From NCBI GenBank assembly GCA_963834905.1, contig CAWIDR010000037.1, positions 93,023 to 157,022 of the forward strand: 64,000 nucleotides of DNA, given 5' to 3'. Source of the DNA: an uncultured Thermoleophilia bacterium. Lineage in GTDB: Bacteria > Actinomycetota > Thermoleophilia > UBA2241. Below, one piece after another: positions 20,420 to 21,890 of this stretch (its first letter is position 1; the number at the start of each line of letters is the position of its first letter). The notes beneath the pieces are model-generated. The model was not told where the DNA came from, ran no database searches, and saw only the letters and a program-made list of their open reading frames with translations. The translations under genes and the position numbers were made by a program.

Positions 20420-21890
20420 CTACTTCACGCCGAGTTCGCGTTCCGCGCCCTCGATTATCGAACGAAGTTCTGCGGCCACCTCGTCGGACAGTGGTTCCGG
20501 CTGGTGCGTCTCGAGGATGCGCCGGGCCTCGGCGAGCGAGCGGTCGTACAGCGTCGTCGCGCCGGCGGCGGTCCACTCCTCGCGGACCCGCCGGTCGATG
20601 AGCTTCGAGTTCGACTGCCCGCGCATGCCCTTGTAGGTGTCCTCGTGCGAGAGGAAGTCCTTGAACGGCCCGACCTCGTCGATGACGTCGACGGACAGCG
20701 TCGCGTCCGTCACCGGGATCCCCGGCACGCAGAACTTGACCATGCGCGCGAACTCCGCATCCATGACCAGTTGCGCGTAATCGATGGTGACGCCCGACTC
20801 CAGCATCCCCAGCCCGTAGATCAGGTTGGCCCCTGCCAACGCCGGCAGCAGGCTGGTGATCGTCTTCTCGTGACCGGATTGGGCGTCCGCCACTTTGGAG
20901 TCGCCCTACGCACCGGCCACCCAGCTGGGCAGCAGGTAGAAGCGCGCGAGGCAGGCGACGCCGGCGCCGATCATGCCGCACTCGGGGCTGCCCACCGAGG
21001 CGCTGGCGAAGCGGAGGTCCATGGCGGTGGTGGACGAGCCGTAGATGACCGGCGCGCCCCTCTGCGTGAGCTGCGCCAGCGTGATGCCGCTGAGCACCTC
21101 GGCGTTGTGGGTGACGAGCGTGCCGGCGAGCGACACGGGCGAGGAGCCGCCGGCCATCGCCATGGAGAGCACGTTGACCGGGATGCCGGCGCGGGCGCCG
21201 GTGATGATGATCTCGCAGGCGTCCTTGACCAGCTTGAGCGGGCTCACGGGGCAGGTCAGGAACGACAGGATGGGGCGGCGGCGCAATGCCTCCGCCCCGC
21301 CGGCGATCGCCGCCGCCATGTCGATCATCTTGCGGGCGCAGAAGCCCGAGAGAGGCCCGATGGTGGCGTGCTTGGTGGTGTTGCTGAAGATCGCCTCGGC
21401 GTTGTGCAGCGCCGCCGTGTCCGGCGGCACGTCGTGGGCGCCGAGCGGCCGCTCGACGACGTCGATCTCCGGCAACGCGTCGATGATCTTCGTGCAGTCG
21501 GCGACGTCCTGCTTGCGGCTCTCGTGCAGCTCGCCGGTGTACGGGTCGACGACCTGGATGCCCTCGCCGAAGTTGGTGAAGCCGACCCGGCCGTCCTCGA
21601 GCACGACGTCCCGGGCCGGGTCGCGGCCGCACATGACGACGGTGGAGGGCGCCGAGCGGACCGCGTCCTCGACGAGGTGCGCCGGCAGGCGCACCACGTT
21701 CGTGGCCGCGGTCGACGTCGGCGCCCGCCGCCGCGAAGATCTGCCGGGCTTCGTCGTCCTCGACGAAGACGCCCGTGCGCGACAGCACTTCGAGCGTCGC
21801 GCCGTGGATCTCGCGCAGCTCGTCGTCGGTGAACACCTCGAGCCTGAAGCCGCCGCTCTTGCGCGCTCCCGCGCGCGGGTTTCTGATCAT
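20420..21890 (-). CDS. mttB: Trimethylamine:corrinoid methyltransferase MttB with an in-frame TAG (20906-20908) at the pyrrolysine position; one frameshift ~21711
   Basis: ORFs 20906..21697 and 20420..20893 share one frame and are separated only by TAG: ..[43 protein letters not shown].. Also [41 protein letters not shown]. The N-terminus LEVFTDDELREIHGATLEVL lies in a third frame. Confidence 0.85.

Follow-up and report, generated by a model that had tools for sequence, protein, structure and literature searches.

Trimethylamine methyltransferase of the pyrrolysine (Pyl) type, MttB, is a textbook family with bacterial examples in Firmicutes and Deltaproteobacteria, and the binding of trimethylamine by Pyl and the subsequent methyl transfer are established knowledge of the family. 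We analysed a minus-strand mttB gene with an in-frame UAG codon in a window of 64,000 nucleotides (64 kb; contig CAWIDR010000037.1 of GenBank assembly GCA_963834905.1, positions 93,023 to 157,022) from an uncultured member of the Thermoleophilia; unless stated otherwise, coordinates are those of the window. Judged from sequence comparison, the locus is quite probably a genuine Pyl-type trimethylamine methyltransferase gene with an in-frame UAG, belonging to an uncultured soil or peat lineage of the Thermoleophilia (Actinomycetota). Pyl would be inserted at the UAG, and trimethylamine is the predicted substrate.

MttB of Methanosarcina barkeri (PDB 7XCL, 7XCM and 7XCN; PMC9842639) resembles the protein of the window in family, in length and in the UAG at the column of Pyl334, and both pass the NCBI profile TIGR02369. 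The gene of the window differs in its bacterial host, which has a G+C content of ~70%, in a Glu in place of Thr111 and in its surroundings: there is no adjacent mttC, and mtbB takes the neighbouring place of mttC or mttP. The bacterial Pyl-type MttBs of Desulfobacterota and Firmicutes are represented here by that of a Desulfobacteraceae metagenome-assembled genome (MAG; locus L047), which is 61% identical to the window's protein and has UAG at the same column. The non-Pyl MttB superfamily (MtgB of D. hafniense, PDB 2QNE; MtcB, MtpB and MtyB) has fold and superfamily in common with the window's MttB, but its members, 26-36% identical to MtgB, act on quaternary amines and encode the Pyl column by a sense codon.

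Pyl-type mttB and mtbB have already been reported in Actinobacteriota, and the core finding is not new (PMC10805028). In the passages concerned, Ellenbogen et al. describe Actinobacteriota MAGs from Stordalen Mire that express Pyl-encoding mttB and mtbB, and name Bog-752 among the most active methylotrophic genera; the same passages recognize Pyl genes by amber-codon truncation together with expression and do not mention the pyl machinery (PMC10805028). As described there, the Stordalen genes belong to the same gene family and lineage as those of the window. MAGs named bog_752 and palsa_645 are among the relatives that we found (L023, L037, L054 and L070), and the window represents a species distinct from the Stordalen MAGs, with ~92% DNA identity to its nearest MAG (L006). 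A pyrrolysyl-tRNA synthetase (PylRS) has also been reported in two Actinobacteria genomes (PMC9630628).

Reading frame and family identity of mttB

A preliminary description of this stretch had joined two minus-strand open reading frames (ORFs), 20906..21697, which ends with TAG 20906-20908, and 20420..20893, into a single gene interrupted at the Pyl position. The two do share a frame, and the gap between the TAG and position 20893 consists of four sense codons (GGC GAC TCC AAA); a GTG follows at 20893, four codons past the TAG, as is found in the window's mttB clade. The protein context quoted around the TAG, the residues given for the Pyl column in four other MttB-family genes of the window (H, T, S and S) and the one-nucleotide spacing from mtbB (TGA-N-ATG) are likewise correct. 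The mtbB stop TGA (21892-21894) is followed by one base and the mttB ATG (21888-21890), with a GGGAGG Shine-Dalgarno motif upstream, and the junction ...GGGAGGCTGAC(N)ATG is also found in the window's closest relatives.

The part of the description that has to be revised is the single frame from 21890 to 20420, broken only by the TAG. The ATG at 21890 is out of frame with both ORFs (21890-21697 = 193, which is 1 modulo 3), and tblastn places the N-terminal and middle parts in frames -3 and -1, respectively: residues 3-61 of relatives match the window in frame -3, and residues 65-327 match the middle segment with 91-95% identity. Pfam finds MTTB in three pieces, with 21701-21890 matching profile positions 30-74, 20909-21697 matching 77-337 and 20420-20905 matching 341-499. 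A 495-residue ORF at 20403..21890 is the N-terminal frame continuing through the remainder of mttB, a spurious ORF of high-G+C DNA. Once the one extra base is removed and X is set at the TAG, mttB encodes a protein of 489 residues.

Over its whole length, this repaired protein can be aligned with M. barkeri MttB (PDB 7xcl and 7xcm; E 1e-125, 47% identity) without a gap at the repaired frameshift, and the X at the TAG aligns with X334 of 7xcl and K334 of 7xcm. Gly110, Met249, Tyr364 and Gly372, described as active-site or corrinoid-contact residues of the M. barkeri enzyme (PMC9842639), are all conserved and correspond to G108, M243, Y358 and G366 in the window. The contacts of Thr111, the residue replaced by Glu, are described as main-chain contacts (PMC9842639). 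The protein scores 741.3 bits with the equivalog profile TIGR02369 (trimeth_pyl), against a cut-off of 525, over profile positions 1-469; the four other MttB-family proteins of the window stay below the cut-off, at 278-347 bits. In a neighbour-joining tree, the window's MttB joins M. barkeri MttB, the Desulfobacteraceae Pyl-MttB and other Thermoleophilia Pyl-MttBs, with the four paralogs (25-29% identity to the M. barkeri protein) outside this clade. The preliminary description likened the flanking blocks to Pyl-type MttB of Methanosarcina, and the phylogeny that it called for places only this one of the five copies in the Pyl-type clade. The four other copies fit the non-Pyl, MtgB-like superfamily, to which this gene, with TAG at the Pyl column and a position inside the Pyl clade, does not belong.

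The same TAG recurs throughout the relatives. Among 5.8 billion proteins searched, dozens of matches are gene calls of 327 residues (82-93% identity) that all end in ...SWVAGA; they are mttB genes truncated by the gene caller at this codon. Scanning the GTDB species representatives gave 80 loci, nearly all from uncultured Thermoleophilia/Actinomycetota MAGs, many of them with the isolate prefix 'MFD' and others from bog, palsa and fen of Stordalen Mire. The Pyl column holds TAG, and never TGA or TAA, in all of the ~85 related copies fetched (~85/~85). These copies span at least four paralog clades, with SWVAGA, SYIAGA, SFVAGL or SCIAGA directly before the TAG, and single MAGs contain two or three Pyl-type mttB genes. 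The column is thus invariant rather than variable among relatives, and this, together with the alignment to X334, agrees with the earlier view that the TAG stands at the pyrrolysine position and is not a coincidence.

The frame beyond the TAG is maintained as coding sequence. In 34 window-clade relatives it is unbroken, with the TAG as codon 328, and extends from the ATG to codons 490-498, where the stop is TGA in 27/34 and TAG in 7/34. The pairwise non-synonymous rate is 0-0.07 over codons 326-375, and the codons just past the TAG vary synonymously and keep the protein sequence G/A/T-D-S/A-K. The other paralog clades have no start codon after the TAG, with Leu or Ile codons where the window clade has GTG, and the C-terminal third of their proteins could therefore be made only by decoding of the TAG.

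Pyrrolysine machinery and corrinoid partner

Several observations weigh against a Pyl-decoded mttB in this genome. In the 64-kb window, a tRNA scan found no tRNA, and homologs of PylSc, PylSn, PylB, PylC and PylD were not found. A tblastn search of the window with the corrinoid protein of L002 gave no match at E < 1e-6, Pfam scans of it gave no B12-binding domain, and neither a RamA-like activase nor a methyl-corrinoid:tetrahydrofolate methyltransferase was found in it. TAG is also a common ordinary stop, ending 12 of the 38 ORFs of the window, and decoding would therefore have to be ambiguous, regulated or conditional; ambiguous or conditional UAG decoding occurs in other Pyl users. As written, the window's copy is frameshifted, so that its frame is interrupted elsewhere than at the UAG, and it may be a true pseudogene in this strain. 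To our knowledge, there is no protein-level evidence for Pyl in any actinobacterium.

Machinery next to mttB was considered for the Thermoleophilia and dropped: by tblastn, no Thermoleophilia mttB had a homolog of PylSc, PylB, PylC, PylD or PylSn within 10 kb. When 60 related mttB loci were scanned for tRNAs, tRNA-Pyl turned up in one Desulfobacteraceae locus only, and when a Desulfobacteraceae PylS served as the query, all matches listed were Desulfobacterota-like. The two matches of highest G+C (L085 and L086; 65%) have pyl clusters but were not accepted as the same lineage, their MtbB being only 45% identical to that of the window.

A search of 50%-representatives, combined with a second homology search, found a high-G+C PylSc clade that includes proteins from Thermoleophilia and Actinobacteria named 'pyrrolysine--tRNA(Pyl) ligase large subunit' by NCBI. 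One of its members (P0391) is encoded on contig_76141 (148,066 nt) of MAG MFD00032.bin.1.63. The contig also bears a Pyl-type mttB (L045), and the MAG additionally holds an mttB of the window's clade (L038), 84-86% identical. The locus on contig_76141 (L087) comprises pylSc, pylSn on the opposite strand, tRNA-Pyl(CUA) and pylC; pylB and pylD were not found in it, and a reverse-transcriptase gene lies beside pylC. Two syntenic loci of the same PylS clade, L090 and L091, have pylSc, pylSn, tRNA-Pyl, pylB, pylC, pylD and a corrinoid protein in ~10 kb. The surroundings of pylSc are of the housekeeping kind, and it overlaps the stop codon of a gene for a cell-wall amidase (Amidase_3). In locus coordinates, these pyl regions are L087 8919-13656, L090 8513-19535 and L091 4937-15960.

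By its gene content, the Thermoleophilia lineage carries full Pyl machinery, and the pyl genes are presumably present in the window's own genome as well. The preliminary description had made its reading depend on Pyl machinery in the genome; this stands for the lineage (MFD00032.bin.1.63, L090 and L091), but the window itself has none, and for its genome the machinery is presumed from these relatives.

The organization of these genes differs from that of L047-type bacterial systems. In L047, pylT-pylSc-pylB-pylC-pylD-pylSn lies ~5 kb from mttB, whereas the Thermoleophilia pyl genes stand apart from the methyltransferase genes and form no compact pylTSBCD operon, being spread over ~10 kb. Common to both are the split PylSc/PylSn and an mttB hairpin, GUUGGC-AGGN-GCCAAC, which is considered below. 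Within the Thermoleophilia loci, pylSn and tRNA-Pyl are on the opposite strand, a few kb off, and pylB-pylC-pylD is a separate block. Genes for a corrinoid protein, an S-adenosylmethionine (SAM) methyltransferase and a second radical-SAM protein lie between the pyl genes.

A gene for a 209-residue corrinoid protein is located immediately upstream of mttB in L002, L004, L014, L016, L018, L022 and L041, and in L002 and L004 gene calls put it between mtbB and mttB. In the window and the relatives closest to it (L005-L011, L013 and L019-L021), mtbB and mttB meet at a direct TGA-N-ATG junction; the corrinoid gene is lost or moved in this sub-clade.

In the mechanism that we propose, translation would start at the ATG at 21890, directly after mtbB, and end at 20420. 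At UAG 20906-20908 the ribosome would insert Pyl, brought by tRNA-Pyl(CUA) in competition with the release factor. The tRNA would be charged by the split PylSc/PylSn synthetase and Pyl made from lysine by PylB, PylC and PylD, with the genes for the tRNA, the synthetase and the biosynthetic proteins all lying outside the window. Standing where M. barkeri has Pyl334, the Pyl residue would bind and activate trimethylamine at its imine carbon, aided by a Tyr-water relay. A corrinoid protein, likewise encoded elsewhere in the genome, would receive the methyl group on its Co(I), and from there the group would pass to tetrahydrofolate.

Alternative readings and neighbouring genes

The alternative that survives best, while still unlikely, is that the frameshift is real and that mttB is a recently inactivated pseudogene in this strain, derived from a functional Pyl-type ancestor. 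The sequence as given does have an extra base: for GACCGCGGCCACGAAC in the window, its closest relative, L006, has GACC-CGGCCACGAAC, and a one-column gap opens against the window in DNA alignments with L001, L002 and L004 and with L005-L013. The loss, in this sub-clade, of the corrinoid gene from between mtbB and mttB is a possible hint of locus decay. Against inactivation, the extra base, located within 21698-21710, is unique to the window and absent in 34 full-length relatives, the frame is intact in close relatives with the same mtbB-mttB junction, and the rest of mttB is 98% identical in protein to L006 and has no more breaks.

Judged against the proteins of relatives, at least ten further frame breaks affect conserved genes of the window (Table 1), including housekeeping-type oxidoreductases and transporters, a pattern that assembly error fits far better than mass pseudogenization. 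The window shows 66 gap openings over 13 kb against L006, and frame breaks of a similar kind occur in related MAG contigs (L078-L080). The MFD MAGs are, we presume, Nanopore assemblies. Because at least ten other conserved genes in the window are also frameshifted, the extra base in mttB most probably arose as an error in a long-read assembly prone to indels and is not biology. A programmed +1 frameshift at ~21700 was rejected, as the base is absent from all relatives and the stretch is variable and unconserved.

It is very improbable that the UAG acts only as a stop, giving a 327-residue fragment, with or without a C-terminal piece started at GTG 20893, and no Pyl. Gene callers do annotate mttB in this way, the window clade has a GTG four codons past the TAG, and TAG is frequent as a stop in the window. 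However, termination at the TAG would cut through a TIM barrel at its catalytic residue, the protein sequence encoded by the four codons from TAG to GTG is conserved, and Leu or Ile codons replace the GTG in other clades. In addition, the TAG is kept, without any change to TGA or TAA, in all copies fetched, and the lineage has both tRNA-Pyl and PylS.

Full-length MttB homologs without Pyl were found among the relatives (P0009, P0030, P0055, P0079, P0086, P0090 and P0106; loci L093-L096). These seven proteins are 53-61% identical to that of the window and nest inside the Pyl-MttB clade, but their residue in the Pyl column is Leu, Trp or Val; P0009 and P0055, both tested, exceed the TIGR02369 cut-off. 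P0030 and P0090 adjoin a Pyl-type mttB, and P0009 adjoins a Pyl-type mtbB. In two non-Pyl lineages, Leu CTC goes with a change of Tyr364 to Phe; one homolog, P0009, has Leu TTG and keeps Tyr364. These homologs look like enzymes that lost pyrrolysine.

Such relatives would give a precedent for reading the window's UAG with a standard amino acid, inserted by a near-cognate or suppressor tRNA, in which case the enzyme would work as they do; the TTG of P0009 is one base from TAG. We give this reading as little credence as termination: the older non-Pyl derivatives have Phe in place of Tyr364, whereas the window's protein keeps the Tyr, the lineage retains a dedicated tRNA-Pyl(CUA) along with genes for Pyl biosynthesis, and TAG is conserved over several paralog clades although a single base change would suffice to reach a sense codon.

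The adjacent mtbB has an amber codon of its own (22246-22248), which falls between positions 353 and 355 of the Pfam Dimeth_Pyl profile. An Rfam PYLIS_2 match (22149-22248, 62 bits) begins at this TAG, and mtbB relatives are split likewise, into 346 and 82-124 residues. On the other side of mttB, its stop TAG is followed by 27 open codons that lead in frame into the ATG of a non-Pyl MttB paralog (18902-20338, minus strand). Reading of this second UAG (20420-20422) as Pyl would give a fused double-MttB protein, but the arrangement (20338-20422) is probably a coincidence. Elsewhere in the window, 33162-36113 on the plus strand is one open frame with aminotransferase and MttB-family domains that ends at TAG 36114-36116, and a complete MttB-family gene (36117-37541, plus strand) follows directly in the same frame, the whole stretch being 33162-37544. 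The two may be distinct genes, parts of a fusion or a product of the high G+C.

Table 1 Features of the mttB locus and frame breaks in other conserved genes of the window
Feature	Coordinates	Strand	Basis or remark
mtbB, for dimethylamine methyltransferase; in-frame TAG at 22246-22248	21892..23370	-	Pfam Dimeth_Pyl on both halves
Shine-Dalgarno-like GGGAGG	21896..21901	-	5 nt upstream of mttB ATG, inside the mtbB end; read from sequence
mttB N-terminal segment, ATG and ~60 codons, frame -3	21711..21890	-	Pfam MTTB profile 30-74
Stretch with one extra base	21698..21710	-	DNA alignments; exact site not fixable within the stretch
mttB middle segment, frame -1, up to the Pyl codon	20909..21709	-	Pfam MTTB profile 77-337
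In-frame TAG, putative Pyl codon, codon 328 of the repaired gene	20906..20908	-	Falls on X334 of 7xcl in the alignment
mttB C-terminal segment of 161 codons, following the Pyl codon	20423..20905	-	Pfam MTTB profile 341-499
mttB stop codon, also TAG	20420..20422	-	Read from sequence
Rfam RF02510 (PYLIS_3, mttB) match	20809..20908	-	71.9 bits (gathering score, 38)
Predicted hairpin GUUGGC-AGGG-GCCAAC	20825..20840	-	+69..+84 from the U of UAG; RNAalifold and pair counts
HdrA-like gene	5074-7092		Three frame breaks (5.1-7.1 kb)
Ferredoxin gene	13262-14183		One frame break (13.3 kb)
3-Hydroxyisobutyrate-type dehydrogenase gene	24972-25890		One frame break (25.1 kb)
TetR gene	37562-38190		One frame break (37.7 kb)
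AFOR (aldehyde:ferredoxin oxidoreductase) gene	38383-40139		Two frame breaks (38.5 and 39.2 kb)
GntR gene	44594-45338		One frame break (44.7 kb)
Family-5 solute-binding protein gene	45572-47390		One frame break (46.4 kb)

Constraint beyond the UAG and implications

The sequence downstream of the UAG raises the possibility, which we advance tentatively and regard as less than even, that bacterial Pyl-type mttB mRNAs carry a conserved RNA element 3' of the codon that matters for amber decoding or handling. In pairwise comparison of 35 window-clade sequences, the synonymous difference is 0.08-0.10 for 37-codon segments starting at codons 323-336; elsewhere in mttB it does not fall below 0.186, and it averages 0.24 over the gene as a whole. 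Synonymous divergence in the 35-40 codons after the TAG is thus 2-3 times below that of any other part of mttB. Protein stretches that are equally conserved, codons 96-115 and 306-325, have normal synonymous rates. Four codons of low frequency in this genome, AAA, CAA, TTG and GCA, are clustered at codons 332-352. TTG and GCA, which make up 1.5% of Leu codons and 3.8% of Ala codons in the window's genes, are fixed at the position of the hairpin, and GGCAGG is invariant (34/34 representative sequences across clades; 76/76 distinct post-TAG sequences). Gene conversion among paralogs was considered as a cause but leaves the low divergence among orthologs of different species unexplained.

RNAalifold predicts a 6-bp hairpin (GUUGGC-AGGN-GCCAAC) in this region, which is kept in all Thermoleophilia Pyl-mttB paralog clades and in Desulfobacteraceae, and also pairs the UAG with the CUA of the catalytic Ile-Tyr364 codons, ~90 nt downstream. 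Among 34 sequences, 95% of cells are paired, compared with 29-47% when the partners are slid. Two hairpin pairs covary, with G-C changed to A-U three times and U-A to C-G four times, and 0/500 shuffles attain the observed pairing score. The two older non-Pyl derivatives (Leu CTC, Tyr364 to Phe) have lost the hairpin, with CTG-GCG or CTC-TCA at its position; the recent derivative P0009, with TTG at the Pyl column, keeps Tyr and TTG-GCA.

Folded alone, the window's post-TAG region gives a z of -1.6 only. The RF02510 match covers model positions 1-100 and starts at the UAG. As the PYLIS_3 model has few pairs, several of them non-canonical in the window, we did not use its structure as folding evidence; the match mainly reflects homologous coding sequence rather than structure. 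The constraint and the hairpin are suggestive of an RNA element, with the structure derived from the same sequences on which it was tested, strong coding constraints and a small sample of non-Pyl controls. At its distance from the UAG, the hairpin could not work in the manner of known read-through stimulators. If real, the RNA constraint after the UAG bears on the old question of cis signals for Pyl insertion.

Gene callers split such genes at the TAG and long-read indels add frameshifts, so that they are easily mis-annotated as fragments or pseudogenes. Given the indel-prone assembly, caution is warranted with pseudogene or split-gene calls anywhere in this window. We know of no cultured Pyl user in the Thermoleophilia. 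The loci described here make a well-documented case of soil and peat Thermoleophilia with several putative Pyl-dependent methylamine methyltransferase genes and a complete, scattered pyl set. They imply bacterial demethylation of trimethylamine and dimethylamine outside the methanogens in wetlands, which could compete with methylotrophic methanogenesis.

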